Assembly (NCBI GenBank): GCA_031459535.1
Contig: JAVKIJ010000045.1
Span: 1-24,877, forward strand
Source of the DNA: Candidatus Fervidifonticultor quintus
GTDB taxonomy: Bacteria; Sysuimicrobiota; Sysuimicrobiia; Sysuimicrobiales; Humicultoraceae
Direction of reading: 5' to 3'
Length of the DNA stretch: 24,877 nucleotides
The position numbers and the translations under genes are program-made. Of this stretch, positions 5,193 to 24,877 are shown in pieces. The notes below the pieces were generated by a model. The model was not told the origin of the DNA. It did not search any database and saw only the letters and a list, made by a program, of their open reading frames with translations. Position 1 is the first letter of the stretch. Every line of letters begins with the position of its first letter.

Positions 5193-5209
5193 AGTCCAAT
5201 GGGAGCACC

Positions 5210-5218
5210 TGCTATAAT
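5210..5218 (+). promoter_or_regulatory. Extended -10 promoter (TGcTATAAT) for prfB
   Basis: TGCTATAAT at 5210-5218, with 9 nt between it and ATG 5228. Confidence 0.75.
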
Positions 5219-5227
5219 GCTGTCGCC

Positions 5228-8985: not shown

Positions 8986-10046
8986 TTCTCGGGTACTACG
9001 GCTTCGGCAACCTCGGAGACGAAGCCGTGCTCGCCGGGCTGCTGGCTGCCCTTCGGGCGCGGCTTCCCGAGGCGCTCGTCGCGGTGCTCTCGGCCGATCC
9101 CCAGGCCACGACGCGGATGCACGGTGTATCGGCTCTGCCCCGCGGGCCGGCGGAGATCTGGCGGGCATTGCGCGGTGCGCGCATGCTGGTCTGCGGGGGC
9201 GGTTCGCTGGTCCAGGACGTGACCAGTGCCCGGAGCGCGCTCTACTACCTGGGCGCCATGCAGGCCGCGTCGTGGCGACGGGTGCCCGTGGCGGTGATCG
9301 GGCAGGGCATCGGGCCGCTGCGTCGGGCGTGGATTCGCCGCCTGGCAGGCCGGGCGTTCTCCCAGGCTCGGGTCATCAGCGTCCGCGACGCCGAGTCCGC
9401 GCAGACTTTGCGTGAGCTCGGAGTACGCCCAGTCGTCCATCTTGGGGCGGACCTAGCGCTGCTGGCGCCGGCGGCCGACCCGGGCCAGGTGCAGGAGCGG
9501 ATCAGGCGTGAAGGGCTTGACCGGGCCCCCATCCGGATTGGGGTGGCCACGCGGGCCTGGCCCGGCATGCGCGAACCAGAGGAGCTTGGGCGGGGGATCG
9601 GCCGGTTCGCCGACATGGTAGGGGCGAGAGTTGCGATCTTCCCCTTCGATCGGTCGCGCGATGGAGAGATCAGCCGCACCGTGGCTCGGGCCGCCGCTGG
9701 CCGGGTGGTGGAGGTCGAGACGCCCGCCGAGCTGATGGGTCTGGTGGCCGCCATGGATCTCATGGTGGCGGTACGCCTCCATGGGCTCATCTTCGCCGCG
9801 GCGGGCGGCGTTCCGGCAGTGGCGCTGGCCTACGATCCGAAGGTGACGGCCTTTGCCGCCGAGATCGGCCTGCCCGGGCCGCTGCCGGTGGACTGCACCG
9901 GGCTGGGGCTGGCGGAGGCCATCGCCCGTGCCTGGGACGGACGCGCAAGCCTCCGGTCCCGCGCGCAGGCCGCGTACCCCGGGCTGCGCAGCCGGGCCCT
10001 GGCCTCGGTAGACCTCCTCGCCAGCGTCCTCAACGGGAGGGCCTAG
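8955..10046 (+). CDS. csaB: Polysaccharide pyruvyl transferase CsaB
   Basis: GYYGFGNLGDEA, GGGSLVQDVTS, YYLG, QGIGPL, SVRD, RLHGLI and YDPKV motifs. Start is uncertain: CTG 8955 proposed; the nearest in-frame ATG upstream of the first motif is at 8787. Confidence 0.9.
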   Translation: MGRPTRSPVLILGYYGFGNLGDEAVLAGLLAALRARLPEALVAVLSADPQATTRMHGVSALPRGPAEIWRALRGARMLVCGGGSLVQDVTSARSALYYLGAMQAASWRRVPVAVIGQGIGPLRRAWIRRLAGRAFSQARVISVRDAESAQTLRELGVRPVVHLGADLALLAPAADPGQVQERIRREGLDRAPIRIGVATRAWPGMREPEELGRGIGRFADMVGARVAIFPFDRSRDGEISRTVARAAAGRVVEVETPAELMGLVAAMDLMVAVRLHGLIFAAAGGVPAVALAYDPKVTAFAAEIGLPGPLPVDCTGLGLAEAIARAWDGRASLRSRAQAAYPGLRSRALASVDLLASVLNGRA

Positions 10047-10065
10047 CTCCCTGCGCCACAGACCT

Positions 10066-10095
10066 GCAGGAGTTCCACCGGATCGAACGGAATAG
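10066..10095 (+). promoter_or_regulatory. Sigma-H-type promoter upstream of spoVS
   Basis: GCAGGAGTT - 12 nt - ACGGAATAG closely matches the Bacillus SigH consensus RnAGGAwww-N11/12-RnnGAATww. Confidence 0.65.
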
Positions 10096-10142
10096 CCTCC
10101 CAGTATCGCCTGCCGTCGCAGCATTTCAAGGAGGCAGACATC

Positions 10143-10406
10143 GTGCCGGAGGTGCTGAAGGTCTCCGCAGACTCCAAGCCCAAGGCGGTTGCAGGCGCTG
10201 TCGCGGCGATCCTGCGGGAGAAGGGCACGGTGGAGATCCAGGCGGTTGGCGCGGGGGCCGTGAACCAGGCTGTCAAGGCCATTGCCATTAGCCGTGGCTT
10301 CGTGGCCCCCAACGGGATCGACCTGGTGGCGATTCCGGCGTTCACGAAGGTCGAGATCGACGGGGAGGAGCGCACCGCCATCAAGTTCCTTGTCGAGGCC
10401 AGGTAG
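10143..10406 (+). CDS. spoVS: Stage V sporulation protein S family protein
   Basis: EVLKVSADSKPKAVAGAVA...QAVGAGAVNQAVKAIAISRGFVAPNGIDL...IPAF...DGEERTAIKFLVE is the SpoVS signature. Strong SD AAGGAGG before the GTG. Confidence 0.97.
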   Translation: MPEVLKVSADSKPKAVAGAVAAILREKGTVEIQAVGAGAVNQAVKAIAISRGFVAPNGIDLVAIPAFTKVEIDGEERTAIKFLVEAR

Positions 10407-10413
10407 CCGCCCC

Positions 10414-11367
10414 GTGAACGGCACGGCCTATGGCGAGCTGAAAATCTTCTGCGGCTCGTCAACCCCGACCCTGGGTCAGGAGATCGCGGAGTACCTGCGT
10501 ACCCCGCTGGGGCGCGTGACCCTCATGCGCTTCGCTGACGGCGAGATCTACTGCCGGTACGAGGAGAACGCTCGGGGCGAGGATGCGTTCGTCATCCAGT
10601 CCACCTGCCATCCCGTCAACGAGCACCTCATGGAACTGCTGATCATGGTGGACGCGCTGCGCCGGGCGTCTGCGGGCCGCATCACGGCCGTGATGCCCTA
10701 CTACGGGTACGCCCGGAAGGACAAGAAGGATGCGCCCCGCGAGCCGATCACCGGACGGCTGGTCGCCGACCTGCTGACCACCGCCGGGGTGAACCGCGTG
10801 CTCACCGTGGATCTGCACGCAGGCCAGGTCGAGGGTTTCTTCAACATCCCCGTGGATCATCTGCGAGCCATGCCCCTGTTCGCCGATTACCTGGCCCGCA
10901 AGGGGCTCCGCAACGGCGTCGTCGTGGCCGCCGACGACGGCGCAGTCCGGCGCAGCAAGCACCTGGCAGACCGCCTCGACCTGCCCCTGGCGGTCATCTT
11001 CCAACGTCGGGTTGGCATGGACGCCAAGGAGCCCATTCAGATCGTGGGCGACGTGGAGGGTCGGATCCCCATCTTCATCGAGGACATCGTGGACACGGCG
11101 GGGACGATCCTCCAGGCCGCAGGCGTCCTGCTGTCGCACGGGTGCCAGCCCGAGATCTACGTGTGCGCGACTCACCCGGTGCTGGCCGGGCCTGCGGTCG
11201 AGCGGCTCTCGCGGCCCGAGATCCGCGAGGTGATCGTCACCAACACGATTCCCATCCGCCCGGACCACCTGATTCCCAAGATCACCGTGCTGTCTGCGGC
11301 CCCGCTGCTGGCTGAGGCCATCCGGCGCATTCACCTCAACCAGTCGGTCAGCCTGCTGTTCACATAG
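10414..11367 (+). CDS. prs: Ribose-phosphate pyrophosphokinase family protein (atypical active site)
   Basis: FADGEI, LMELLIMVDALRRASA, PYYGYAR, DLHAGQVEGFF, DTAGT, ATH, VTNTIP and SVSLLF motifs. GTG start at 10414. Confidence 0.92.
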   Translation: MNGTAYGELKIFCGSSTPTLGQEIAEYLRTPLGRVTLMRFADGEIYCRYEENARGEDAFVIQSTCHPVNEHLMELLIMVDALRRASAGRITAVMPYYGYARKDKKDAPREPITGRLVADLLTTAGVNRVLTVDLHAGQVEGFFNIPVDHLRAMPLFADYLARKGLRNGVVVAADDGAVRRSKHLADRLDLPLAVIFQRRVGMDAKEPIQIVGDVEGRIPIFIEDIVDTAGTILQAAGVLLSHGCQPEIYVCATHPVLAGPAVERLSRPEIREVIVTNTIPIRPDHLIPKITVLSAAPLLAEAIRRIHLNQSVSLLFT

Positions 11368-11374
11368 CCACGTC

Positions 11375-12862
11375 GTGACCGTGGTCCGAACGCGCTTCGC
11401 CCCCTCGCCGACCGGATACCTCCACGTGGGTGGAGCTTGGACCGCGTTCTTCAACTGGCTGTACAGCCGCCACCAGGGCGGCGTGTTCATCCTTCGGATC
11501 GAGGACACCGACCGATCCCGGTCTACCCAGGAATACGAGGCGGCCATCCTGGAGGACTTCAAGTGGCTGGGACTGACCTGGGACGAGGGGCCCGATATCG
11601 GGGGGCCGGTGGGGCCCTACCGGCAGACGGAGCGCGGTCACCTCTACGCCCAGTACGCCGCCGAGCTCGTGGAGCGCGACGCGGCGTACCCGTGCTACTG
11701 CACGCCACAGGAGCTGGAGGCCGAGCGACGGCAGGCCGAGGCTCAGCGTCGCCCGCACCGCTACTCCGGGCGCTGCCGGGCGCTGACTCCCGCGCAGCGG
11801 GCAGTTCTGGAAGCCGCCGGCCGCCGGCCGTCACTGCGCCTGCGGGTGGTCGGTCAGATCGAGCCGATCGTGGTGCACGACATCATCCGCGGCCCGGTGG
11901 TGTTCGAACCCGAGCACCTGGACGACTACATCATCGTCCGATCCGACGGCACGCCCCTGTACAACTTCGCCAATGTGGTGGACGACCACCTGATGCAGGT
12001 GACGCTGGTGATCCGCGCCAGCGAGCACCTCTCCAACACACCCAAGCAGTGGCTGATGTACCAGGCGCTGGGCTGGACTCCCCCCCAGGTGGCGCACCTC
12101 CCCGTGATTCTCGGCGCCGATCGCAAGAAGTTGAGCAAGCGCCACGGCGACACCGCGATCCGCGAGTATCGCGCCCAGGGGTATCTGCCCGAGGCCATGC
12201 TGAACTTCTTCGCGCTCATGGCTTGGCACCCGGAAGCCGAGCGCGAGGTGTACAGCTTGGAGGAACTGATCGCTGGTTTCGCGCTGGAGGAGGTCGGCCG
12301 TGCATCCCCTGTCTTCGACCTGGACAAACTCACCTGGCTGAATGCGGTCTACATGCGCCAACTCATCGAGCGCGATCCCGATCGGGTGGTCACTCTGTGC
12401 GCCGAGATCCTCCACCGTGAGGGGCTGCTGCCGGCCAGCCCGTCGGCCGACCAGCGAGCGTATCTGAGGAAGGTCATCGAGGTCGTGGGCGACCGATTGC
12501 GCGTCGGGCGGGACATTGTCGCCTACGGCGACTTCTTCTTCAGGGACGTGGTCTACGAACCTGCGGCTGCTGCGCAACACCTGGTACCGACGGCCGCGCC
12601 CTTGCTGGGAGCGTTCGCCGATGCGCTGGCGGGTCTGGAGCGGTTCGAGCGCGGACCCATTGAGGCGGCACTGCGGCGGGTGTGCGCCTCCGCCGGCCTC
12701 GATGCCCGCGCTCTGATCCACCCCGCCCGGGTGGCCCTGACGGGGAAGACTGTGGGCCCCGGGCTGTTCGAGCTGACCGAGTTGTTGGGCCGCGAGCGCG
12801 CCCTAGAGCGGCTACGCCAGGCGGCGCGTCTGGCCACAGGACAGAGCGCCCGCGCGCCTTGA
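11375..12862 (+). CDS. gltX: Glutamate--tRNA ligase
   Basis: RTRFAPSPTGYLHVGG, LRIEDTD, GPYRQTER, YPCYC, KLSKRHG and RVALTG...GPGLFE motifs. Confidence 0.97.
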   Translation: MTVVRTRFAPSPTGYLHVGGAWTAFFNWLYSRHQGGVFILRIEDTDRSRSTQEYEAAILEDFKWLGLTWDEGPDIGGPVGPYRQTERGHLYAQYAAELVERDAAYPCYCTPQELEAERRQAEAQRRPHRYSGRCRALTPAQRAVLEAAGRRPSLRLRVVGQIEPIVVHDIIRGPVVFEPEHLDDYIIVRSDGTPLYNFANVVDDHLMQVTLVIRASEHLSNTPKQWLMYQALGWTPPQVAHLPVILGADRKKLSKRHGDTAIREYRAQGYLPEAMLNFFALMAWHPEAEREVYSLEELIAGFALEEVGRASPVFDLDKLTWLNAVYMRQLIERDPDRVVTLCAEILHREGLLPASPSADQRAYLRKVIEVVGDRLRVGRDIVAYGDFFFRDVVYEPAAAAQHLVPTAAPLLGAFADALAGLERFERGPIEAALRRVCASAGLDARALIHPARVALTGKTVGPGLFELTELLGRERALERLRQAARLATGQSARAP

Positions 12863-12888
12863 CCCCCTTTTGCGGACGCCCGTATAAT
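12859..12888 (+). promoter_or_regulatory. Sigma70 promoter for tRNA-Gln
   Basis: TTGACC (12859-12864, overlapping the gltX stop) - 18 nt - TATAAT (12883-12888). Confidence 0.8.
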
Positions 12889-12938
12889 CAACGTGCGCCC
12901 GCGCTCCACGTGCGGTGCGGCGTGCTCCGCGTGCACGC

Positions 12939-13012
12939 TGGGGGATCGTCTAATGGTAGGACGACGGGCTCTGGACCCGTTAGTGGGGGTTCGAATCCTC
13001 CTCCCCCAGCCA
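12939..13012 (+). tRNA. tRNA-Gln (anticodon CTG)
   Basis: Acceptor stem TGGGGGA/TCCCCCA, D-arm GTC-TAATGGTAG-GAC, anticodon arm ACGGG-CTCTGGA-CCCGT, T-loop GTTCGAATC, discriminator G and encoded CCA. 74 nt. Confidence 0.97.
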
Positions 13013-13049
13013 CCTTACCGGTCCACCATTTGACACATCATCGCCCCAG

Positions 13050-13898: not shown

Positions 13899-14039
13899 CT
13901 GGGCTCAGTGATTCTTCGACGATGCCTGCGTCTCGCGCAGCGCCCACCCGCCGCCGACAGGAAGCGGACAGCCCTTGGCGAAACCACGCTTCCACTGCCG
14001 GCCCCACGGTCCGCGGTGAAGACGTCAAAGGAGAACACC

Positions 14040-15158
14040 ATGAGCAGCGTGCGGGTTCTGGTCGGTACCCGGAAGGGAGCCTTCATCCTCTCGTCGGACG
14101 GCCGGCGGCAGCAGTGGGATGTCAGCGGGCCGCACTTCCCTGGCTGGGAAGTCTACCACGTGAAAGGTTCTCCCGCCGATCCCCAGCGGCTGTACGCGTC
14201 ACAGTCCAGCGGTTGGTTCGGGCAGGTGGTTCAGCGCTCCGATGATGGCGGCCGGACCTGGACCCCCGTGGGGAACACGTTCGCATACGAGGGTATCCCG
14301 GGCACGCACCAGTGGTACGATGGAACGCCCCACCCGTGGGAGTTCAAGCGGGTCTGGCACCTTGAGCCGTCGCTGACCGATCCGGAGATCGTCTACGCTG
14401 GCGTGGAAGACGCCGCGCTGTTCCGCTCGACCGACGGCGGCTGGAGCTGGCAGGAACTGGCCGGCCTGCGCGGCCACGGCTCAGGACGCTTCTGGCAACC
14501 CGGCGCCGGGGGGATGTGCCTGCACACCGTCCTGCTGGACCCAGGCGATCCCGGCCGGATGTTCGTGGCCATCTCGGCGGCGGGCGCGTTTCGGACCGAA
14601 GACGCGGGCCGGACCTGGCAGCCGATCAACCGCGGGCTCATCTCCCAGTACGAACTGCCAGACCCGGATGCGGAGGTCGGGCACTGCGTGCACCACATGG
14701 CCATGCACGCGTCGCGACCGCGGGTGCTGTTCATGCAGAAGCACTGGGACGTCATGCGCAGCGACGACGGCGGCGATTCGTGGCGCGAGGTCAGCGGCAA
14801 CCTGCCCACCGACTTCGGCTTTGTCATCGACGTGCACGCCCACGAGCCGGACACCGTCTATGTGGTCCCCATCAAGAGCGACTCGGAGCACTATCCGCCC
14901 GAAGGCCGGCTGCGCGTCTACCGCAGCCGCACCGGTGGAGGCCAGTGGGAGGCGCTGACCGACGGCCTGCCGCAGCGCGACTGCTACGTCAACGTGTTGC
15001 GTGAAGCCATGGCCGTCGATGCCCTGGATCCGTGCGGCGTCTATTTCGGCACCACCGGGGGCCAGGTGTACGCCTCGGCCGACGCGGGAGACCACTGGGC
15101 CTCCATTGTCCGGGATCTGCCCGCGGTGCTCTCGGTGGAGGTTCAGACGCTGTCGTGA
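14040..15158 (+). CDS. Asp-box/BNR-repeat beta-propeller protein (often annotated exo-alpha-sialidase/glycosyl hydrolase)
   Basis: Repeats [40 protein letters not shown] and SADAGDHW. N-terminal [18 protein letters not shown] before ATG 14040. No signal peptide. Confidence 0.85.
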
Positions 15159-15451
15159 TCCGGGTCGTGCTCCCGACGCACCTGCGGAGGCTGGCGCAGG
15201 TTGATGGCGAGGTGACGCTGGAGGTTGTCGGGCCGGTCACGCAGCGTTCGGTGCTCGACGCGCTGGAGGCGGCGTACCCGGCGCTGCGGGGGACCATCCG
15301 CGACCATCTCAGGGGCCAGCGACGGCCGTTTGTGAGATTCTTCGCATGCGAGCGGGACCTGTCCCACCAGGCGCCAGACGCCCCGCTGCCCGAGCCGGTC
15401 GTGCGGGGGAAGGAACCGTTACTGATCGTGGGAGCCCTGGCCGGCGGCTGA
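15155..15451 (+). CDS. MoaD/ThiS family ubiquitin-like (beta-grasp) protein
   Basis: 98 aa: [13 protein letters not shown]...[17 protein letters not shown]...RRPFVRFF...GALAGG-stop, ending in Gly-Gly. GTGA overlap with the propeller gene stop. Confidence 0.88.
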
Positions 15452-15574
15452 GACCGTTCGATCGTCCCCTCCCCAGACCGTCACTGGCGCGCCGAAGGTC
15501 CCCTGGCCGGGGCCGGAGGATGCGCCGCCGCTGGCCCGAAGGGAATCCACGGTGGTCCAGAGAGGAGATCGTGG

Positions 15575-18226
15575 ATGAGGGAATTGCACAGGACGTTTCT
15601 GTACGACGCGCACAAGGCCCTGGGCGCGAGGATGGTGGAGTTCGCCGGATGGGAGATGCCGCTACACTACCCCACCGGGGTGGTTCAGGAACACTTGGCC
15701 ACGCGGAAGCGCGCAGGCCTGTTCGACATCTCCCACATGGGACGGTTTGCGATTCGCGGGCCGGGCGCATTGGCATTCCTCCAGCACGTGCTCACCAACA
15801 ACGCTGCCGCGTTGGATGGCCGACCTGTGGGCGCCCAGTATACGGTCATCCCCAACGCCACAGGCGGGGCGGTTGACGACGCGTATCTCTATCGCTTCGA
15901 GGACGGGGAGTTCCTGCTGGTGGTCAACGCCGCCAACCGACAGAAGGACTGGCAACATCTCCAAGGGTATCTGGGGGAGTTCCACGGCGTCGAGCTGGTC
16001 GACTGTACCGAAGATGTGGTCATGCTGGCGTTGCAGGGGCCCATGGCGCGCGACCTGCTCGGCGGCGTGATGACGTCCGGCGAGCTGCCCGAGCCGCCGC
16101 GCAATACGGTGAGCATCGTGGGGGTCAACGACGCCCAGGTGAGGGTCGGCCGGACGGGATATACGGGCGAGCCGCTGTGCTTCGAGCTCTTCGTGGATCG
16201 CCGGCAGGGCCCTGCGCTGTGGGACCTCCTGATCCGGCGGGGCGCTACGCCGGTCGGCCTAGGTGCCCGGGACACACTGCGTCTGGAAGCCGGCCTGCCG
16301 CTCTACGGCCACGAGTTCGGCCCGGATCCCGAGGGGCGGGAGATTCCCGTCCTCGCGGTCTCCATCACGAAGTCGGCGGTCAGCTTCTCGGCGCTGAAAG
16401 GGGAGTTCGTGGGCCGCGCAGCTCTGCGCAGGCAATTCGAGGCGCTGGCCAGGATCATGTCGCGCGACTACTCGACCCTGCCAGACCTCCCCCGGCGCAT
16501 CAGGCCGCTGGCCGTCACCGGACGCGGCATTGCCCGCCAGGGCGCCAGGGTGTTCAAGGGGGACCGCCACGTCGGCTACGTGACCAGTGGGACCATGGTG
16601 CCGTTCTGGATCTTCGAAGACGACGGGAACATCTCCAGACCCACGGACCGGCACGAGATGCGCGCGATCGCTCTGGCCTACATCGACAGTGACGTTGCCG
16701 ATGACGAAGAGCTCCGCATCGACATCCGCGGTCAGGCCGTGGAGGCGGTGGTGGTTCCGTACCACCTCCGCTCTGAAGCGCCGCCGTACGCCCGGCCCAT
16801 CGTGGTCCGCCGGGCGGCCCCGGAACCGGTCCCGCCCGCGCAGGCGCCTCAGGCGCGGGTGCGCTGGCTCCTGCAGGAGACCATCAGCAACACCCGGTGG
16901 AGGCAGCACCAGTGCGTCAACCTGATTCCCTCGGAGATGACGGCTTCTCCCATGGTGCGGCTCCTATCGGTCATGGACCCGGCGTTCCGCTACGGCGAGC
17001 ACCGGGAGGTGAAGGCGTTCTACGACGCAGAGGTCTTCTACTATCAGGGGACGGAGTTCATCGCAGAAGTGGAGCGGCGGCTGCAGCACGAGATGCGGCG
17101 ATACCTGGAGTGCCATGACGTAGAGCTGCGGGTGATCAGCGGGCAGATGGCCAATGCCGCCGTGTTCAGCGCCATGGTGGACTACATCAACCGGGCAGAC
17201 CGCCGCCAGGAACCCAGGCGCATGCGATGCGTCATGAACCACCACATCGGCAAGGGTGGCCACCTGAGCGCCCAGCCCATGGGCGCCCTGAAAGACTTTG
17301 TCGCCCGCGACCCAAGGACCGAGCGCCCGGCGGTGATCAACTTCCCGGTGCTGCGCGACAACCCCTATCAGATTGACGTGCAGGCGACGTGCGAGCTCAT
17401 CGACAGATACCGCCCTGAGCTTATCGTCTTCGGCAAGAGCATGGTCCTCCACAGGGAACCCGTGGCCGAGATCCGCCGATTCCTCGACGCTCAGCGGATC
17501 ACGGCCGTGGTGATGTATGACATGGCCCACGTGCTGGGGCTGGTCGGGCCGCACTTCCAGCGGCCGTTCCAGGAGGGGGCCGATCTGGTGACGGGCTCGA
17601 CCCACAAGACCTACTTCGGGACCCAGCGGGGCGTGGTGGGCAGCCGCTTCCAGCCCCACGAGGAAGGCTATGAGCTGTGGGAGCGGGTGCGCAGCCGGGC
17701 GTTTCCCGGAGCTCTCTCCAACCACCACCTTGGTACGCTGCTGGGCCTGCTGATGGCCGCCTACGAGATGAACCACTTCAAAGATCAGTACCAGCCCAGG
17801 GTCATCGCCAACGCCAAGGCGTTCGCCCGGGCCCTGCACGAGTGTGGACTGGCCGTGGCCGGCGACCCGGCCATAGACTTCACGGAGACTCATCAGGTCG
17901 TGGTGCACGTGGGGTACAGTCGGGGCCCGGAGATCGCGCGTCGGCTTGAGGAGAACTGCATCATCTGCAATTTCCAGGCCTGCCCGGGCGAGGAAGGCTT
18001 CACGGCCGCCGGGGGACTGCGGCTGGGAGTCGCGGAGATGACCCGCTTTGGCATGGAGGCCGAAGACTTCCGTGAACTGGCTGTCCTGATGAGGGAGGTG
18101 ATTGCAGACGGGGCCAACGTGGCCTCGCAGGTCAAGGCATTTCGCGCCCGGTTCCGTGACCTCCGGTTCTGCTTTCGTCAGGAGGACTACGCGGACCTGA
18201 TCCAGGAGTTGCACGGGCTCCTGTAG
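15575..18226 (+). CDS. Fusion of glycine-cleavage aminomethyltransferase (GcvT, N-terminal) and serine hydroxymethyltransferase (GlyA, C-terminal)
   Basis: GcvT motifs EFAGWEMPLHY, GLFDISHMG, LVVNAAN, ALQGP, RTGYTGE and GLGARDTLRLEAGLPLYG. Pro/Ala linker. SHMT motifs NLIPSE, GGHLS, YDMAHVLGL, TGSTHKT, ANAKAFA and GLRLG. SD GAGGAG. Confidence 0.93.
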   Translation: MRELHRTFLYDAHKALGARMVEFAGWEMPLHYPTGVVQEHLATRKRAGLFDISHMGRFAIRGPGALAFLQHVLTNNAAALDGRPVGAQYTVIPNATGGAVDDAYLYRFEDGEFLLVVNAANRQKDWQHLQGYLGEFHGVELVDCTEDVVMLALQGPMARDLLGGVMTSGELPEPPRNTVSIVGVNDAQVRVGRTGYTGEPLCFELFVDRRQGPALWDLLIRRGATPVGLGARDTLRLEAGLPLYGHEFGPDPEGREIPVLAVSITKSAVSFSALKGEFVGRAALRRQFEALARIMSRDYSTLPDLPRRIRPLAVTGRGIARQGARVFKGDRHVGYVTSGTMVPFWIFEDDGNISRPTDRHEMRAIALAYIDSDVADDEELRIDIRGQAVEAVVVPYHLRSEAPPYARPIVVRRAAPEPVPPAQAPQARVRWLLQETISNTRWRQHQCVNLIPSEMTASPMVRLLSVMDPAFRYGEHREVKAFYDAEVFYYQGTEFIAEVERRLQHEMRRYLECHDVELRVISGQMANAAVFSAMVDYINRADRRQEPRRMRCVMNHHIGKGGHLSAQPMGALKDFVARDPRTERPAVINFPVLRDNPYQIDVQATCELIDRYRPELIVFGKSMVLHREPVAEIRRFLDAQRITAVVMYDMAHVLGLVGPHFQRPFQEGADLVTGSTHKTYFGTQRGVVGSRFQPHEEGYELWERVRSRAFPGALSNHHLGTLLGLLMAAYEMNHFKDQYQPRVIANAKAFARALHECGLAVAGDPAIDFTETHQVVVHVGYSRGPEIARRLEENCIICNFQACPGEEGFTAAGGLRLGVAEMTRFGMEAEDFRELAVLMREVIADGANVASQVKAFRARFRDLRFCFRQEDYADLIQELHGLL

Positions 18227-18253
18227 GTCGGGCGGCCTGGCGCCGGGCCCGAC
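18227..18253. terminator. GC-rich hairpin between convergent gcvT-glyA and glnS
   Basis: GTCGGGC (18227-18233) is the reverse complement of GCCCGAC (18247-18253). No U-tract on either side. Confidence 0.35.
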
Positions 18254-18274
18254 GTCCGAGCTGACCAGCGCGTT

Positions 18275-19990
18275 CTACCGCGCGCGGCCGGCGAGCTTGG
18301 CCCAGGAATCGCGGAGCGTCACGATGCGGTTGAACACCAGGTGGTCGGGCCGGGAGTCCACCGGATCCGGCCAGAAGTATCCCAGGCGCTCGAACTGGTA
18401 GCGGGTGTCCGGGGGATCGCCGAGCACGCTGGGCTCGACCCAGCCATTGACCACCACCAGCGACTGGGGATTTAGATGGGCGGTGAAGTCGCCGTCGCCC
18501 GCCTCGGGGTCGGGCACGAGGAATAGACGGTCGTAGAGCCGTATCTCCGCCGGCACCGCGTGCGCCGCCGAGACCCAGTGGATGGTACCCCTGACTGGGC
18601 CCCCGGCCGGTGGTTTGCCGAGCGTGTCGGGATCGTAGCTGCAGCGCAGTTCCACTACCTGGCCGTGCCCGTCCCGCACGACCTCATCGCAGCGGATCAC
18701 GTAGGCGTGGCGCAGGCGCACCCGCCCGCCGGGTGTGAGGCGGTGGAACCCCTTCGGCGGGTGCTCCAGGAAGTCGTCGCGCTCGATGTAGAGCTCTCGG
18801 GAGAACGGCACCACCCGCTCGCCCGTCCGGGGCACGTCATGGGGCCAGTAGGGCGCCTGGAGGTACTCCACGGTGGCGTCGGGGAGGTTGGTCAGCACCA
18901 CCCGCAGGGGCCGGAGCACGGCCAGCACCCGGGGCGCGCGGTAGTTCAGGTCGTCTCGTACCGCCGCCTCGAAGATCGCAGGATCCACACGACTGTTGGC
19001 CCTGGCGACGCCGATGCGGTTGGCGAACTCACGAATCGCTTCCGGCGTCACGCCCCGGCGCCGGAGGCCTGAGAGGGTGGGCAGGCGCGGGTCGTCCCAG
19101 CCGTGGACGTATCCGCCTTCCACCAGTCTGATCAGCTTGCGCTTGGAGAGGACGGTGTAGTCCAGGTTCAGCCGCGCGAACTCGTACTGGTAGGGGCGAG
19201 ACGAAGAGGGGAGACCGCACGTGCCCCGCAGATTCTCCACCAGCCAGTCGTAGATGGCACGGTTGTTCTCGAACTCGAGGGTGCAGAGGCTGTGGGTGAT
19301 GCCTTCGATGGCGTCGGAGAGCGGGTGTGCGAAATCGTACAGCGGATAGATGCACCACGCGTCGCCGGTGCGGTAGTGCCGCGCGTGCACGATGCGGTAG
19401 AGAACCGGATCGCGCAACTTCATGTTGCGGCTGGTCAGGTCGATCTTCGCCCGCAGGACATGCGCGCCGTCGGGGAACTGGCCGGCGCGCATCCGCCGGA
19501 ACAGGTCCAGATTCTCCTCCACGCTGCGGTCGCGGTACGGGCTGGGCCGGCCGGGCTCGGTCACCGTGCCGCGATAGACGCCGATTTCGTCCTCGGACAG
19601 GCTGTCCACGTAGGCCTTGCCGGCCGCAATGAGCTGCTCGGCCATGAAGTAGAGTCGCTCGAAGTAGTCGGACGCGTAGAGCTCCCTGCTCCACTGAAAC
19701 CCCAGCCACGCCACATCCCGCTTGATGGCTTCCACGTACTCGACACTCTCGGTTTCAGGGTTGGTGTCGTCGAAGCGCAGGTTGCACTCGCCGCCGTAGT
19801 CAAGCGCGAGGCCGAAGTTGAGACAGATGGACTTGGCGTGTCCGATGTGCAGATAGCCGTTGGGCTCTGGCGGGAACCTGGTGACCACGCGCCGATACCG
19901 CCCGCGCCGGAGGTCGTCGTCGATGATGTCGGTGATGAAGTTGGGACTGACAACTCGCTTGCGGGCGGAGCCGCTGGAGTCTCTGCTCAT
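18275..19990 (-). CDS. glnS: Glutamine--tRNA ligase (no C-terminal YqeY appendage)
   Basis: [69 protein letters not shown] and [11 protein letters not shown] at 19990 with SD GGAG. Confidence 0.98.
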
Positions 19991-20051
19991 GGGCACTCCA
20001 TCGGAATCGCGCGAGGCCGCGCGCGGGAGTATTGTCCCGACCTGGATGGCG

Positions 20052-21428
20052 CTACCTGGCCAGCCCCTCGAGCACCTCGGCGGGCGCCGCCATCCGGCCC
20101 GCGGCCCCTCGATCGTGCAGCGCCATGGCCAGGTACTTGTCCGCTTCGGCGTCTGCGCCCGCCTCCCGCAACAGCAGACCGAGTTCCCCCGCGGCGGTGG
20201 TCGCCCGTCCTCCCTCCCCGACGCGGTTGAGCGTGGACACGGCACCCCGCAGGAGTTCGATGGCCTCGCGGCGGCGTCCCTGCGCCCGCAACACCCGCGC
20301 CAGCGCCACCTGGCAGGCGGCCTGGCGCGCCGGGTCGCCTGCCGCCTGCGCCTCCCGGATGCCGCGCCGCGCCGCCCGGGAGGCATCGCCGCGGCGCTTG
20401 AGCGCCAGCAAGACCAGGGCCATCTCCTCCAGGGTCATGCTGCGGTCGCGGGGCGACGCGACCCGGTCCTGGACGCGCAACGACTGTTCCAGCGCCGCCA
20501 GCGCCTCGTCCAGCTTCCCCTGCTCGCGGCGCACCAGTCCCAGGTGACCAAGGGTCCGGCCGACCTCGACGAGATCCTCGGCTCCGGCGAACGCCTCGCG
20601 GGCCTGGGTGAGATACGTCGCCGCGGCGTCCAGTTGTCGGCGCGACCAGGCCACCAGGCTGAGGCCGACCAGCGCCTTGCCCCGCAGCGACGACAGGCGC
20701 AGCCGCGCGGAAACCTCGAGTGCCCGCCGGTAGGCTCGCTGCGCCCGGTTGATCTGGCCCAGCTGGAAGCGTGTCGTGCCCAGGGAGAGCAGCGCGCGCA
20801 CATTCTCCTCGGTGCGGGCGGCCTTGCTGCGCTGCAGGATCACCGCAGCCTCTTCCAACCACGGCAGGGCGGCGCCATACGCGCGCCGCCGGACCTCCAC
20901 TTCCCCGCGAAGGGCCAGGGCCATTCCCAGATGGGTAGCCAGCCGGTGTTGGCGGGCCAGCGCCGTGGTCTCCTCGGCCCAACGCGCGCCTTCGTCGAGC
21001 CGCCCGGCGCCAATGGCGACGCGGGCCCGGAGCAGCGCCGCACGGGCCCGCAGCTCTACCGGCATGTCGGGCAGCAGGGCCGACGCCGCATCCACGAGCT
21101 TGATGGCGTCGGCGCCGTGGGTGTCCGGGTCCATCTGCCGTGCCAGGTGTAGCAGATTCAGCACCGTCTCGACCCGCAGGTCCGCCGGATCCAGGAGCAG
21201 CGCGCCAATCGAGCTGTTGACCCGTCTGGCCAGGGAGATGACCGTCTCCACCGAGGGATGCGAGCGCCCGCTCTCCAGAAGACTGATGAAGCTCTTGCTC
21301 AAATTGGGCGCGCCAAGAGCCTGCTGCGTCAACCCGGCGCGGCCGCGGGCGAACAACAGGCGCCGTCCAAACTGAACCAGCCATTCCGGCCGCGCTGACA
21401 CGGATGGCGTCGGAGGACGTGTGGACAC
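20052..21428 (-). CDS. XRE-family HTH plus TPR-repeat transcriptional regulator (RRNPP-like architecture)
   Basis: N-terminal [39 protein letters not shown], followed by about 8 TPR-like helical repeats (e.g. [25 protein letters not shown]). Confidence 0.85.
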
Positions 21429-21434
21429 GGCTAC

Positions 21435-21463
21435 AGCCTAGCACCGCGGCATGCCGTTGACAA
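21435..21463 (-). promoter_or_regulatory. Sigma70 promoter for the HTH-TPR gene (likely leaderless transcript)
   Basis: Minus strand TTGTCA - 17 nt - TAGGCT, with TG extension (TGcTAGGCT) and 6 nt before the GTG start at 21428. Confidence 0.65.
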
Positions 21464-21564
21464 TGCACGCCCGGACGCCGGGCGGTGGAGGGGACCGCCG
21501 CCGGCGCGGGGAAGAACCGCCGCGGACCGGCCTGCCGTACGGCCTGGTCTGCTGGGGGAGTGCG

Positions 21565-21885
21565 ATGACCAGATCGCGACCGTCACCGGTGAACCCTCAC
21601 CTGCGCGATCGTCTCGTGGATCGCCTGTGCCGTGCTCTGTTGACCCTGAAGACCGTTGAGGAGTGCTACCGGCTGCTCGAGGACCTCTGTACGGTCAGCG
21701 AGATCAAGGCCCTGGCAGCGCGACTGGAAGTGGCCCGCCTCCTGGATGCCGGCCTGACGTATGAGGAGATCGCGCGACGGACAGGTGCCAGCAGTGCCAC
21801 CATCAGCCGGGTCCGCCGGTTTCTCGAATACGGGGCCGACGGGTATCGCCTGGTCCTCGATCGTCTGAGCCGCGGGCATCACTGA
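21565..21885 (+). CDS. YerC/YecD family TrpR-like regulator (HisR)
   Basis: LCRALLTLKTVEECYRLLEDLCTVSEIKALAARLEVARLL...TYEEIARRTGASSATISRVRRFLEYGADGYRLVLDRL is the YerC signature. SD GGGGGAG. Directly upstream of the his operon. Confidence 0.92.
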   Translation: MTRSRPSPVNPHLRDRLVDRLCRALLTLKTVEECYRLLEDLCTVSEIKALAARLEVARLLDAGLTYEEIARRTGASSATISRVRRFLEYGADGYRLVLDRLSRGHH

Positions 21886-21927
21886 CACGACGCCTCACCA
21901 GTGTCACCCGCGCAGCGGATGTGACCC

Positions 21928-21956
21928 TTGACGGACGCTCAGCGTCGTGGTAAGCT
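21928..21956 (+). promoter_or_regulatory. Sigma70 promoter of the his operon
   Basis: TTGACG (21928-21933) - 17 nt - TAAGCT (21951-21956), preceded by TGg (extended -10). Confidence 0.8.
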
Positions 21957-21976
21957 AACGGTGTTTTGCAATTTAG

Positions 21977-21996
21977 TACTTTATCGTGATAAAGGG
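21977..21996. promoter_or_regulatory. HisR/YerC-type operator palindrome
   Basis: taCTTTATC-GT-GATAAAGgg in an AT-rich patch just downstream of the promoter. Resembles the Firmicutes HisR box (CTTTA-N6-TAAAG). Confidence 0.78.
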
Positions 21997-22004
21997 ACAA
22001 AGTC

Positions 22005-23231
22005 ATGCGCATTCGCAGCGCCGGGCGTGCCCGGTGGCGTCAGGTGCCGGCAGGGATGCCCGACCAGACGGCGGACCACGTCGCGGCCCGGCGGCGCCTG
22101 GAGGCCCGCCTGCTCACCCTGTTTACCGCGTGGGGCTACGATGAGGTGGCCACCCCCACCCTGGAGTACCTGGACACGCTGCTGCATGGCGCTGGGCCCG
22201 GCGTCGCCGACCGCCTGCTGAAGCTGGTGGACAGCGGCGGCGAGATTCTCACCCTGCGTCCCGAGATGACCGTGCCGCTGGCGCGGTTCGCCGCCACGCG
22301 GCTGCTGCCCGCCGGCCGCCGGCCGCTGCGGCTGGCGTACGTGGCCACGGTCTTCCGAGGACAGGAACGCGGCTCCGGCCGCTTGCGCGAGTTCACCCAG
22401 GCCGGCGTCGAGCTGATCGGTGAGGGCGATCTGGCCTCCGACGCTGAGGTCATCGCCCTGGCCGCCGAGGCGTTGCGCGTCGCCGAGGTGCCGGGGGCGT
22501 CTATCAGCGTGGGGCACGCGGGGTTCCTGCGGGGTCTGCTGGCGTCGTTGCCCGACCCGATCGCCGAGGCCACCCGCGACCTGTTGTACCGGCGGGCGTT
22601 CGCCGAGCTCAACCGCCTGGTCCCCCAGGGAGCGTCGCTGGAGGCGCTGCGCCGGCTCCCGACGCTGCGCGGGCCCGATGCGCTGGATCGGGCGCAACCC
22701 CTGGCCGCCACGGACGAGAGCCGGGCCGCGCTGGAGGCGCTGCGGGTGGTGCTGGACCGCGTGGCGGTCCACCGGCCCGCCGTCCGCGTCGACCTTGACC
22801 TGGGGCTGATCCGGGACTTCGACTACTACAGCGGCGTGGTCTTCGAAGCCCACGGGCCTGCCCCAGGCCTGCCGCTCCTGGGTGGAGGGCGGTATGATGA
22901 CCTGCTTGCTCGCTTTGGGCAACCGGCTCCCGCGACAGGGTTCGCCATCGGCCTCGAACGGGTGCTTGAGGTCACGTCGGCCCGTCCGGGCACCCGAGGC
23001 GTGGTGATGGTGGTCTACCGCGGCGATGCCTATGGCGCCGCAGTCGCGGCCGCGGCCAGGCTGCGGGACGCTGGCGTCCCGGCGATCGTCTCACCCACTC
23101 CGGGCGCGGGGGGCCACCTGGGTGTGGTGACCGTGGAACCGGACGGGCTGCGGATCGAACTCGGGGGGCGCCAGACGACCGTGACGCTCGACCGCCTGGT
23201 GGCGACCGTGCAGGCCGCCTGGGCGCCATGA
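22005..23231 (+). CDS. hisZ: ATP phosphoribosyltransferase regulatory subunit
   Basis: HisRS-like motifs WGYDEVATPTLEY, LRPEMTVPLAR, REFTQAGVELIG, DYYSGVVF, GGGRYDDL and ATGFAIGLER. Immediately precedes a short-form hisG. Confidence 0.93.
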   Translation: MRIRSAGRARWRQVPAGMPDQTADHVAARRRLEARLLTLFTAWGYDEVATPTLEYLDTLLHGAGPGVADRLLKLVDSGGEILTLRPEMTVPLARFAATRLLPAGRRPLRLAYVATVFRGQERGSGRLREFTQAGVELIGEGDLASDAEVIALAAEALRVAEVPGASISVGHAGFLRGLLASLPDPIAEATRDLLYRRAFAELNRLVPQGASLEALRRLPTLRGPDALDRAQPLAATDESRAALEALRVVLDRVAVHRPAVRVDLDLGLIRDFDYYSGVVFEAHGPAPGLPLLGGGRYDDLLARFGQPAPATGFAIGLERVLEVTSARPGTRGVVMVVYRGDAYGAAVAAAARLRDAGVPAIVSPTPGAGGHLGVVTVEPDGLRIELGGRQTTVTLDRLVATVQAAWAP

Positions 23232-23884
23232 TGATGGTACCGTTGGGCGTCGCGGTCCCCACGGGTCGGCTGCTGGCCGGGGCGCTGGGGTTGCTGCAAC
23301 GCGCTGGGCTGGCCGTCGACGCGCTGAGCGATGATCGACGGCTGATGGTGACCGTGCCCGGTGCCGTGCGCATCCTGAAGGCCAAGCCCACCGATTTGCT
23401 CACGTATGTGGAGCGCGGGGCGGCGGACGTAGGGATCATCGGCCGCGACATGATTCTGGAGCAAGGTCGCGACGTGTACGAACTGCTGGACCTTGAGTTC
23501 GGCGCGTGCCGGGCGGTGCTGGCGTTTCCCGAGGATGCGGCTGACGAGCTGTGGCAGCCCGGTCGCGCGCTGCGGATTGCGACCAAGTACCCGCGCCTGA
23601 CCGCAGGATACTTCGAGCAGCAGGAACGTCCGGTGGAGATCGTGGTGCTGTATGGTTCGGTGGAACTGGCGCCCCTGGTCGGGTTGGCCGACGGCGTTGT
23701 GGACTTGGTCATGACCGGGCGGACCCTGGTCGAGAATCGCCTCCGGGAGGTCGCCGAGGTGGCGCGGTCCACGGCCAGGCTCGTGGCGAATCGCAGCAGC
23801 CTGAGCCAGTCGCCTCGGGTGGCCGAGTTCGTGGCCACGGTGGAGTCGCTGCTGGGGCAGCGGAAGCGAGGTGTGCATGCGTAG
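23228..23884 (+). CDS. hisG: ATP phosphoribosyltransferase, short form
   Basis: YVERGAADVGIIGRD, LLDLEFGACR, RIATKYP, GSVELAPLVGLADGVVDLVMTGRTL..N motifs. 218 aa, lacking the C-terminal regulatory domain. Confidence 0.96.
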   Translation: MMMVPLGVAVPTGRLLAGALGLLQRAGLAVDALSDDRRLMVTVPGAVRILKAKPTDLLTYVERGAADVGIIGRDMILEQGRDVYELLDLEFGACRAVLAFPEDAADELWQPGRALRIATKYPRLTAGYFEQQERPVEIVVLYGSVELAPLVGLADGVVDLVMTGRTLVENRLREVAEVARSTARLVANRSSLSQSPRVAEFVATVESLLGQRKRGVHA

Positions 23885-24877
23885 GGAGCCGTTCCCAGTC
23901 CAGGCGCTACGCGATCAGCCGCCAGACCAACGGCGTCGGAGACTCGAGCGGTCGTCGGCGGCTATTTTCAACGAACAGGCGCGGGCGTACGCCCGACAGG
24001 TCCTGGAAGACGTGGCATCTGGCGGCGATGAGGCTGTGGCGGCGTATACCGCCCGGTGGGATGGGGTGACGTTGCGACCGGACGAGCTCGAGGTGCCGCG
24101 TGACGCGTTCGACGCCGCGCGCCGCACGCTCGATGGCGGCCTCCTCCATGCCCTGGAGAGCGCCATCGCGCGGAGCCGGCGCTACAATCAGTGGCTGCGG
24201 CCGCCGTCGATGATGCTCGAGGAACTCGAACCCGGCATCACGGTCGGGGTCCGCTACACGGCCTGCCGGTCGGCCGGCCTCTACGTGCCATCTGGCAAGG
24301 GGACGTTCCCCTCGATGCTGATCGCGCTGGGCGTCCCGGCGGCGGTGGCCGGTGTGGAACGGGTGGTGGTGGTGGTCCCGCCACGGCCGGACGGAACGGT
24401 GGATCCCGCCGTGCTCGTCGTCGCAGACCTGTTGGGGATCCGGCATCTGATCCGGTGCAACGGTGCCGCGGGGGTGGCGGCCCTGGCAGTTGGGACAGAG
24501 CGCATCCCCAGGACCGACCTGGTCGTGGGCCCCGGCAACCCCGTCATCGCTGCGATCCAGCTCGCCGCGGCGCCCTTTGGCACCCGGCCCCTGGTGATGC
24601 TTGGTCCCACCGAGTCCGTGGTGCTCGCCGACGACAGCGCCGACCCCGACCGCCTGGCGCTGGACTTGCTCAATGAGGCCGAACACGGCACTGATTCCGC
24701 TGCGGTCCTGCTCGCTGCAGGCGCCGGGCTGGCCGAAGCGGTCGCGGAGCGCCTGCCCGGCTACCTGGACCGCCTGCCCCAACCCCGGCGCACCTACGCG
24801 CGAGCGGCCCTGAGCGATCTGGGTGGGTTGTTCGCCATCGCCGATCTGGACGAGGGGATCGAGTGGATCAACCAGTA
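23877..24877 (+). CDS. hisD: Histidinol dehydrogenase family protein, 3'-truncated by the window edge (missing from the ORF track)
   Basis: Manual translation from ATG 23877: MRREPFP...DVASGGDEAVAAYTARWDG...AGLYVPSGKGTFPS...VPAAVAGV...AALAVGTERI...VGPGN...GPTESVVLAD...DLLNEAEHGTDS, open to the end of the window. Confidence 0.88.
   Translation, partial: MRREPFPVQALRDQPPDQRRRRLERSSAAIFNEQARAYARQVLEDVASGGDEAVAAYTARWDGVTLRPDELEVPRDAFDAARRTLDGGLLHALESAIARSRRYNQWLRPPSMMLEELEPGITVGVRYTACRSAGLYVPSGKGTFPSMLIALGVPAAVAGVERVVVVVPPRPDGTVDPAVLVVADLLGIRHLIRCNGAAGVAALAVGTERIPRTDLVVGPGNPVIAAIQLAAAPFGTRPLVMLGPTESVVLADDSADPDRLALDLLNEAEHGTDSAAVLLAAGAGLAEAVAERLPGYLDRLPQPRRTYARAALSDLGGLFAIADLDEGIEWINQ

Follow-up and report, generated by a model that had tools for sequence, protein, structure and literature searches.

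A single gene, at positions 15575..18226 (+) of a 24,877-nucleotide stretch of DNA from the hot-spring bacterium Candidatus Fervidifonticultor quintus (contig JAVKIJ010000045.1 of assembly GCA_031459535.1; this whole stretch is the window in what follows), codes for one protein of 883 amino acids (aa) made of two known enzymes: the aminomethyltransferase that belongs to the glycine cleavage system (GCS), GcvT or T-protein, followed by a serine hydroxymethyltransferase (SHMT). Glycine cleavage and SHMT are two hubs of one-carbon (C1) metabolism. The fusion is real, widespread and, apparently, unstudied. It probably allows the C1 unit to be passed directly between glycine breakdown and serine synthesis. 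The best explanation of the whole set of observations, which we hold to be probable while leaving real room for doubt, is that of a bifunctional T-protein/SHMT with a fixed mutual packing of its two halves, methylene-tetrahydrofolate (methylene-THF) being passed between their sites, and whose gene was acquired horizontally and displaced the resident gcvT.

Architecture of the chain and identity of its halves

The open reading frame (ORF), 883 codons and a stop, contains neither an internal stop nor a frameshift, and its homologues match it in length and architecture. It is preceded, 8 nt 5' of the ATG, by aggaga (15562..15567, +), which reads as a Shine-Dalgarno-like motif. All its parts lie on the + strand. 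The GcvT half covers residues 1-412 (15575..16810), as identified from NCBIfam models, Foldseek comparison and residue conservation; a linker of 15 residues, 413-427 (16811..16855), defined by the alignment of the fusions, has the letters VVRRAAPEPVPPAQAPQARV at about residues 411-430; the SHMT half, residues 428-883 (16856..18223), is divergent and resembles the enzyme from M. jannaschii, as judged from Pfam and fold. Within this half, a highly conserved stretch specific to the fusion family (residues 536-590; 17180..17344) stands out by being gapped against the M. jannaschii chain 4bhd, by its conservation and by predicted contacts, and the codon aag of the pyridoxal phosphate (PLP)-binding lysine, K678, is found at 17606..17608, within V-T-G-S-T-H-K-T. 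Pfam places GCV_T at residues 9-251 (249.6 bits), GCV_T_C at 363-395 (40.8 bits) and SHMT at 434-837 (118 bits, for a cut-off of 27). A preliminary description of this DNA had proposed an uninterrupted chain of GcvT, linker and SHMT. The frame and the Pfam scan, with all three domains detected, agree with it, and the PLP lysine codon and the SHMT motifs that it quoted are present as described: YYQG (489-492), TGSTHKTYFG (673-682) and FPGALSNHH (710-718). It was also right in stating that gcvH and gcvP are absent from the window, where neither GCV_H nor GDC-P was found among the 23 ORFs scanned. An Rfam scan of 14900-18500 at E<=1 returned no glycine riboswitch and no other family, while a search for promoters and terminators gave one internal promoter-like site and zero terminators.

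By score, the N-terminal half is a true T-protein, for which aminomethyl transfer dependent on the H-protein is predicted. It scores above the cut-offs of two curated GcvT models (NF001567, 308.9 bits for 300; TIGR00528, 245.9 bits for 235.85) and aligns to solved T-proteins over residues 2-343 (190.9 bits for 1woo, and 169.6 bits). Its model, of predicted local distance difference test (pLDDT) 92.5, superposes in Foldseek on the T-proteins 1woo/1wos with a template modelling score on the target (TMt) of 0.86-0.89 and E 5e-32. With the stand-alone GcvT of T. maritima (1woo) and of E. coli (3a8i, with H-protein) it has in common the fold, the curated models and a neighbourhood of GCS genes; it differs from them in being covalently joined to SHMT, and has, compared with 1woo, additional segments near residues 290-305 and 344-362. 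For the active sites of both halves 58 fusions were aligned (the window protein, 41 proteins from related loci, 11 diverse representatives and 5 close hits), the positional equivalence of residues resting on alignments to solved chains, and their roles being presumably those of the E. coli, human and B. stearothermophilus (Bacillus) enzymes. D101, N118, E204, R232 and R236 are each found in 58/58 fusions. The VDD motif aligns to IDD of 1vlo and 1woo, and we take D101 to be the Asp counterpart of the residue mutated in 3a8k ('ETD97N'), the catalytic or folate-related roles of Asp, Asn, Glu and Arg being assumed likewise.

The SHMT half finds its best match among solved chains in the SHMT of M. 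jannaschii (4bhd/4uqv, 168.3 bits, TMt 0.89). An L-threonine transaldolase, 7k34, is the third-best solved match (106.8 bits); mouse SHMT (1eji) scores 95.5 bits and chain 1dfo, which we take to be the E. coli enzyme, 64.8 bits. The three motifs quoted above align to LYQG, GSTHKTFFG and FPGVVSNHH of 4bhd, so that GSTHKT(F/Y)FG and FPGxxSNHH are common to both enzymes, and the alignment runs over residues 11-446 of 458. The archaeal enzyme, however, is stand-alone, and the fusion half has in addition the conserved stretch at about 536-590. Another difference lies just before the carboxylate-binding Arg, where the fusion motif N799-F/Y-Q801 aligns to LNKN of 4bhd and to CNKN of mouse 1eji: N-K-N there, N-F/Y-Q here. 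Y473, Y490, S522, G561, G562, D649, S675, H677 and R816 are kept in all 58 fusions, and E475, H563, H652 and K678 in 57 of the 58. From these residues both halves look catalytically competent. Mean pairwise identity among the fusions is higher in the SHMT half (0.61) than in the GcvT half (0.55), and the two diverge together (r = 0.97 over 1653 pairs). A half that is the better conserved, and that evolves in step with its partner, is therefore no decaying passenger, nor has there been domain swapping.

Where this SHMT comes from is a separate matter. A quick maximum likelihood tree of 81 rows was built, for which we chose the canonical GlyA of Ca. F. quintus as outgroup; besides it, the tree comprised 59 of the 73 long candidates from an exhaustive search of representatives (14 being left out for coverage below 80%) together with every second of the first 42 rows of the fusion alignment. 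The 34 fusion halves and 5 stand-alone proteins form one clade (SH-aLRT 99), whose sisters are stand-alone SHMT-like proteins. Named relatives are a protein from Schekmanbacteria, in sister position, and one from Woesearchaeota, within the fusion clade. The nearest non-fusion Atlas clusters comprise 6 rows that are mostly bacterial and 4 that are mostly archaeal. Shorter proteins related to the SHMT half are for the most part pieces of fusions cut off at the end of a contig, in the search made for them, which also brought up proteins of 424 aa on long contigs. Canonical bacterial GlyA, such as the copy that this genome carries on its contig C35, belongs to the same Pfam family and has the same PLP-lysine chemistry, whereas the fusion halves, in this tree rooted on that very GlyA, make a clade of their own among divergent SHMT-like proteins. 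The epithet 'archaeal-type' used in the preliminary description is therefore a fair description of likeness (168.3 bits against 64.8 bits for 1dfo), and not of origin: because the closest stand-alone relatives mix bacterial and archaeal clusters, a lineage restricted to archaea, or derived from them, is not supported.

Spread of the fusion and its place in genomes

The same architecture is found in thousands of database proteins, as the preliminary description had surmised. The 120 best listed homologues are all 864-923 aa long and 69-89% identical to the window protein, with both Pfam domains. When one genome of each species was scanned for the pattern, 206 stretches matched, 184 of which encode a relative; the best 80 of these 184, with 59-76% identity, were kept as loci. 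The fusion is present in at least 184 species genomes of about 11 phyla, for the most part with 59-72% identity and an almost unchanged length. According to record title or NCBI label, the 80 loci belong to Thermodesulfobacteriota, 'Deltaproteobacteria' metagenome-assembled genomes (MAGs), Acidobacteriota, Actinomycetota (Thermoleophilia), Chloroflexota, Planctomycetota, Gemmatimonadota, Pseudomonadota and three candidate phyla, with Syntrophobacter and Desulfosarcina-like MAGs among the carriers. Databases label these proteins only as GcvT or as glycine hydroxymethyltransferase. At the junction itself, a point raised in the preliminary description, contigs of 3972 and 3751 nt, assembled from two hot-spring DNA runs, are continuous: they cover 15400-18300 without a gap and differ from it in 0-2 letters. 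This support is not independent, because the runs may be the source of the window DNA; the homologues are what lends independent support. The same study has an RNA library, whose contigs fall in 22 of 30 bins and reach into both halves; none of them bridges 16564-16854 (residues 330-427), and such a library may contain DNA as well. That the fusion ORF is real, and no assembly artefact, is confirmed. One locus, in a Thermoleophilia genome (L069, G033:C16:362281-364859), has its fusion gene in two frames, with a break near 362760-362844 that may be a frameshift or a sequencing error.

In most of what follows the genome of Ca. F. quintus has to be read with the quality of its assembly in mind (138 contigs, 88.9% complete, 5.24% contamination). 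We compared it with 30 relatives, 5 of the same genus, 13 of the same family and 12 of the same order. None of the 30 has the fusion (0/29 without the unpublished genome G053). What each of them has is a stand-alone gcvT: an open frame of 369-584 aa that matches about residues 3-420 only, with 39-46% identity. The surroundings of the gene are those of the genus: same-genus genomes are colinear with the window at 5001-13012 (69-73% nucleotide identity), 14039-15449 (79%), glnS at 18287-19965 (79-81%) and 20116-24872 (71-73%), so that the contig is correctly binned. Nothing in these genomes matches the fusion, except for a short similarity of its 5' part to gcvT elsewhere in the genome, and the slot that it occupies, between a MoaD-like ORF and glnS, varies: one congener (G041) has there a gene resembling those of pyrroloquinoline quinone (PQQ)-dependent dehydrogenases, another (G045) a long ORF and a 148-aa ORF. 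In G041 (locus L091, G041:C24) gcvT ends 17 bp before gcvH. Contig C18 of Ca. F. quintus (L092) aligns to this gcvT-gcvH operon (78%) from gcvH onward only; the last 129-156 bp 5' of gcvH (7086-7241 of L092) hold no GcvT C-terminus, and the contig ends there. Taken together, the absence from 30 relatives, the syntenic flanks and the native gcvT missing 5' of gcvH argue for horizontal acquisition with displacement; with no other GCV_T match in the genome, they suggest that the native gcvT gave way to the incoming fusion. The idea of a horizontal acquisition, already voiced in the preliminary description, gains in this way from the congeners, which have other genes in the slot. In the core clade of 883-aa proteins of the SHMT tree, phyla are intermixed on short branches, which fits repeated transfer.

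The vicinity of the slot deserves a few remarks of its own. The MoaD-like ORF (15155-15451, +) encodes 98 aa ending in Gly-Gly, presumably the look of MoaD/ThiS-type proteins; it has no match in Pfam or NCBIfam, and a genome of the same genus conserves it (L089 3768..4064). A gene for a BNR/Asp-box repeat protein (13908-15158, +) ends in a TGA that overlaps the GTG with which this ORF starts (GTGA). Further upstream, some 80 nt (12932-13013) are 95-99% identical in genomes of the same genus, family and order while their flanks are about 72% identical; this is probably a tRNA gene. On the other side, the variable slot begins right at the 3' end of glnS (18275-20386, -), and glnS of G041 (L089 259..2577, +) has a C-terminal extension of about 200 aa, absent from the glnS of the window and from that of G045.

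ORFs were called in the 80 related loci and clustered, and the cluster representatives were named with Pfam and NCBIfam. A gcvH, gcvP or lipB gene is near the fusion in 31/80 loci; among the 49 loci whose flanks measure 3 kb or more on each side, 21 have one. Across the 80 loci the neighbours include gcvH (27), gcvP subunits (28), lipB (17), a pyridine-nucleotide-disulfide oxidoreductase (PNDR, 12), an Lrp/AsnC regulator (9) and genes of Liv-type ATP-binding cassette (ABC) transporters. One typical map reads lipB< gcvPB< gcvPA< gcvH< Lrp< PNDR> FUSION> serK-like> ACT-HAD>, another FUSION> gcvH> gcvP> gcvP> lipB>. We then searched 40 fusion-bearing genomes, those of 41 of the 80 loci, mostly loci with long flanks, the other 39 loci being left out. 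In 24 of them TIGR00528 matches nothing but the fusion at E<=1e-20. In two others the additional match is another copy of the fusion (G021) or another piece of the same gene (G033); a stand-alone-sized GcvT above cut-off is found only in G025 and G032. In Ca. F. quintus the fusion is the only GCV_T match, gcvH, gcvPA and gcvPB are on contig C18, and the canonical glyA on C35 scores 523 bits against NF000586. A formate-tetrahydrofolate ligase (FTHFS) is also encoded (869 bits). GCS-gene adjacency, along with the status of sole GcvT match in many genomes, supports the view that the fusion acts as the T-protein of its host.

In 34 of the 40 genomes a canonical SHMT exceeds the NF000586 cut-off, two of these matches being fusions in the reverse order, described below; it was not found in G002, G007, G014, G021, G022 and G027. 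In G002, where the record (G002:C1, locus L062) is a whole chromosome by its title, no canonical glyA was found. Besides the fusion, this genome carries another divergent SHMT-like gene, broken by a single TAG (stretches of note: 4916842-4918028 and 4054015-4055295); its main SHMT may be the fusion. The PNDR gene exemplified by L022 1077..2504 (-) has equivalents directly 5' of the fusion in L015, L039, L044, L047, L057 and L058. It comes closest to models of coenzyme A-disulfide reductase/NADH oxidase (304 bits, below cut-off), with 129 bits for lipoamide dehydrogenase, and may stand in for the L-protein. In the Ca. F. quintus genome, tblastn (E<=1e-5) detected neither a serine-kinase-like gene nor one of the ACT-HAD or PNDR kind; the alpha chain of serine dehydratase was not found either, which, in an 88.9% complete genome, is no evidence of absence. 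Finally, a glycine/sarcosine/betaine reductase cluster, legible only if TGA is taken as selenocysteine, is present at 5140..10019 of L093 (G000:C1:4000-17000): it contains GRDB, a GrdE-like gene and DUF5940+GRDA, and adjoins two ABC permease genes. A tie between the fusion and glycine reductase was dropped, full-length GRDB being present in only 4 of the 40 fusion-bearing genomes.

Predicted packing of the halves, and a fusion in the reverse order

In the alignment of 58 fusions the sequence of the linker varies and its length is nearly constant. AlphaFold2, run on the whole chain with this alignment, returned pLDDT 92.5 and a predicted template modelling score (pTM) of 0.90, with the lowest-pLDDT block (61) at residues 411-420. 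As the two halves are of similar size, such a pTM implies that their relative placement is confident. When the halves were folded as separate chains, the interface score ipSAE was 0.63 (median of 3 runs) for 0.00 in the best of 3 controls; the mark used for this score is reached by 58 of 80 solved complexes and by 2 of 110 mismatched pairs, and is a rough guide here since the alignment was custom. Contacts agree at 83% or more between the two-chain runs, with a partner pLDDT of at least 91. No entry of the PDB spans both halves (the best Foldseek score on the query, TMq, is 0.44), so that the success of the prediction is unlikely to be the memory of a known complex. These two-chain models support binding between the halves.

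The contacts are predicted to involve residues 76-85, 159-160, 171-175, 200-201, 270-274, 352-354 and 402-404 of GcvT, and 559, 580-584, 588, 781-789 and 805-811 of SHMT. Of the latter, 580-584 and 588 fall within the family-specific stretch 536-590 which is gapped against 4bhd, and column conservation at residues 561-580, among the best in the family, is 0.94. According to the models, the halves meet in a fixed interface to which an SHMT insertion peculiar to the fusion family contributes. Contacts 559 and 805-811 flank the motifs GGH563 and N799-x-Q801...R816, which, from known SHMT structures, we take to line the pocket for folate and substrate. The models would in this way bring the two folate sites together, judging from the predicted contacts.

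Nature seems to have joined this enzyme pair more than once. Two Anaerolineae genomes that have the 883-aa fusion also encode a protein of about 1042 residues in which Pfam finds SHMT first and GcvT next (locus L087 2007..5135, +, on G029:C24; also L088, on G015:C50). Its SHMT is of the canonical type (422 bits with Pfam); a conserved spacer of about 200 residues follows, and then GCV_T (256 bits). Among the 120 best listed homologues of this protein, 118 have both domains and 112 are 1035-1083 aa long, and the names among the matches listed are Anaerolineales or Chloroflexota. Identity with the 883-aa fusion is as low as 26% for SHMT and 39% for GcvT, which makes of it an independent fusion. 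This Chloroflexota protein, member of a large conserved family, uncharacterized and annotated only as GcvT or glycine hydroxymethyltransferase, thus has the same two families in one chain, but in the opposite order, with its long spacer and its canonical-type SHMT.

Reaction, direction and rival explanations

In the explanation that we prefer, the N-terminal half would be the T-protein of the organism, working with GcvH and GcvPA/PB made from another contig, and the C-terminal half a PLP-dependent SHMT of a divergent, M. jannaschii-like lineage. The 5,10-methylene-THF produced at one site would be used at the other, and THF returned, for a net reaction 2 glycine (+ NAD+) <-> serine + CO2 + NH3 (+ NADH). 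The horizontally gained gene would have displaced the native stand-alone gcvT, the canonical glyA being retained for housekeeping. That methylene-THF is channelled we infer, with the fixed interface predicted near the folate-site motifs as a hint. Sharing of methylene-THF requires that it be made at one site and used at the other, as in the net reaction above; with the reductive glycine direction, it would be consumed at both. We favour, with modest confidence, the direction from glycine to serine, because recurrent neighbours of the fusion resemble genes for amino-acid uptake and use, and because a homologue of free serine kinase is found downstream. The latter gene lies directly 3' of the fusion, on the same strand and at a median distance of 30 bp, in 11 of the 80 loci: the 293-aa protein (SerK/SbnI-like) encoded at L037 8694..9575 (+), without a Pfam match, has equivalents in L039, L040, L041, L042, L044, L047, L050, L056, L057 and L064. 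It matches NF053625 with 65 bits (E 4.7e-18, below the cut-off of 380) and PDB entry 5x0b with E 5.3e-9. In 10 loci an ACT+HAD gene, SerB-like (TIGR00338, 112.8 bits, below the cut-off of 144), comes next. Fusion, SerK-like and SerB-like genes together suggest an operon leading from glycine to serine to phosphoserine. In T. kodakarensis, GCS and GlyA convert glycine to serine, SerK being proposed to carry it onward, by way of phosphoserine, to 3-phosphoglycerate (PMC11032457, PMC5120207); T-protein and SHMT are separate there, and the SerK step is what parallels the serine-kinase-like gene of the 11 loci. We may carry the conjecture further, to a self-contained machine making serine from glycine, invented twice (GcvT-SHMT in Thermodesulfobacteriota and many further phyla, SHMT-GcvT in Chloroflexota), where a bound folate would shuttle the C1 unit across the interface, insulated from the C1 pool, and which in the loci with a serine kinase would head an undescribed route glycine -> serine -> O-phosphoserine -> 3-phosphoglycerate. 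This is a speculation that we consider unlikely to be right in full. If it were true, the route would serve glycine assimilation, or make a terminal branch of the reductive glycine pathway that dispenses with serine deaminase.

Several points weigh against the bifunctional, horizontally acquired T-protein/SHMT. What the data establish is the architecture, the conserved residues, the genomic linkage, the distribution, the pattern of acquisition and a predicted interface; both activities, the folate hand-over and the direction are inferred. The SHMT half does not reach the cut-off of the canonical GlyA model NF000586 (PRK00011; 230.1 bits for 335), as is the case in 40 other genomes, with scores of 222-268 bits, and 56 of the 58 fusions have Q801 where the N-K-N folate motif of canonical enzymes has its second Asn; the substrate or cofactor preference of this half may therefore differ from that of canonical SHMT. 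The enzyme of M. jannaschii, its closest solved relative, presumably prefers tetrahydromethanopterin, although the FTHFS of this genome, an enzyme of THF, and the resemblance of the GcvT half to T-proteins that use THF point indirectly to the latter. SHMT is, besides, normally an obligate homodimer with a shared active site, and this would have to be formed here with a docked GcvT half. As for the genome, neither the statement that the fusion is its only GcvT nor the loss of the native gcvT is proven, with 88.9% completeness, 5.2% contamination and a contig, C18, that ends at the critical place. The fusion sits in Ca. F. quintus between unrelated genes, away from gcvH and gcvP; no partner L-protein was identified; and 49 of the 80 related loci have no GCS gene in the flanks available. 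The model of the reverse-order fusion, lastly, is weaker (pLDDT 76.7, pTM 0.64).

Other explanations share part of these observations. The protein might be bifunctional and mainly reductive, its T-protein running in reverse within a glycine synthase and its SHMT adding a second C1 unit, fusion then meaning co-localization and fixed stoichiometry with no hand-over. Many hosts being Thermodesulfobacteriota or syntrophs, and formate-THF ligase being encoded here, this has some appeal, the more so as the downstream serine-kinase-like gene also fits a drain of serine towards 3-phosphoglycerate. An ancestral reductive glycine pathway based on GCS has been proposed for Desulfobacterota (PMC12827605). 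Yet with no intermediate common to the sites, two independent fusions and a fixed interface become harder to explain, and uptake and catabolism are what the Lrp regulators and amino-acid ABC transporters near the fusion resemble. The fusion is also present in Acidobacteriota, Gemmatimonadota and Thermoleophilia, for which we know of no reductive glycine pathway. We think the reductive explanation improbable. Still less probable, in our opinion, is that the C-terminal half be another PLP-dependent aldolase or transaldolase of SHMT fold, one cleaving threonine or other beta-hydroxy amino acids, for example, and feeding glycine to its neighbour. The missed GlyA cut-off, the change of the folate motif at Q801, the rank of the transaldolase 7k34 and the canonical glyA carried by most hosts would all agree with such an enzyme. 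Real SHMT matches better, however (168 against 107 bits); E475, Y490, H563, N799 and R816, needed for the folate-dependent reaction, are kept; 6 of the 40 fusion-bearing genomes, G002 among them, have no canonical SHMT match; and the predicted interface adjoins the folate-site motifs.

One could also see in the fusion a device for co-expression and equal dosage only, each half drawing on the free folate pool without kinetic coupling. This is consistent with the data, and classic work on pea mitochondria reportedly found no channelling between the separate glycine decarboxylase and SHMT. A constant linker length, a whole-protein pTM of 0.90, a specific predicted interface made through a conserved family-specific insertion and the existence of a second independent fusion are not what such a device calls for, and we would be rather surprised if it sufficed. 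As to an assembly or binning artefact, whether misjoined genes or a foreign contig, the fragmented and partly contaminated assembly and the residues left unbridged by RNA-library contigs could be invoked in its favour; thousands of independent assemblies with the same architecture of about 883 aa, and flanks colinear with same-genus genomes, make it hardly credible.

To return to the bifunctional T-protein/SHMT, some known systems resemble it in part. The plant mitochondrial glycine decarboxylase and SHMT of photorespiration perform the same net conversion of 2 glycine to serine, CO2 and NH3, with separate proteins. In dimethylglycine oxidase (1pj6), heterotetrameric sarcosine oxidase (1vrq/2gag) and trimethylamine N-oxide (TMAO) demethylase (9q59), all of which came up as structural or sequence matches, a domain of GcvT fold is joined to an enzyme producing C1 units. 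An oxidase or demethylase is the partner in these enzymes and yields an iminium or formaldehyde, and no H-protein is used by the GcvT-like domain; SHMT, the partner in the fusion, consumes or produces methylene-THF itself. In dimethylglycine oxidase and heterotetrameric sarcosine oxidase the C1 fragment reportedly travels through an internal cavity. A literature search outside subscription journals found neither order of the fusion described, in keeping with the preliminary description, which knew of no biochemical characterization. A recent study of the evolution of GCS and SHMT in Desulfobacterota (PMC12827605, 2026) has neither 'fusion' nor 'fused' in its main text, and the fusion is absent from the main text and one supplement file of a 2016 survey of metabolic gene fusions (PMC4921024).

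That a single chain should be so widespread, displacing the usual T-protein, and that a second fusion should exist in the opposite order, argues for a selective benefit in coupling the two steps physically. Here is a ready-made part for asking whether the hand-over of methylene-THF raises flux. Thousands of database entries labelled only 'GcvT' carry a second enzyme, and this affects the pathways that are reconstructed from them.

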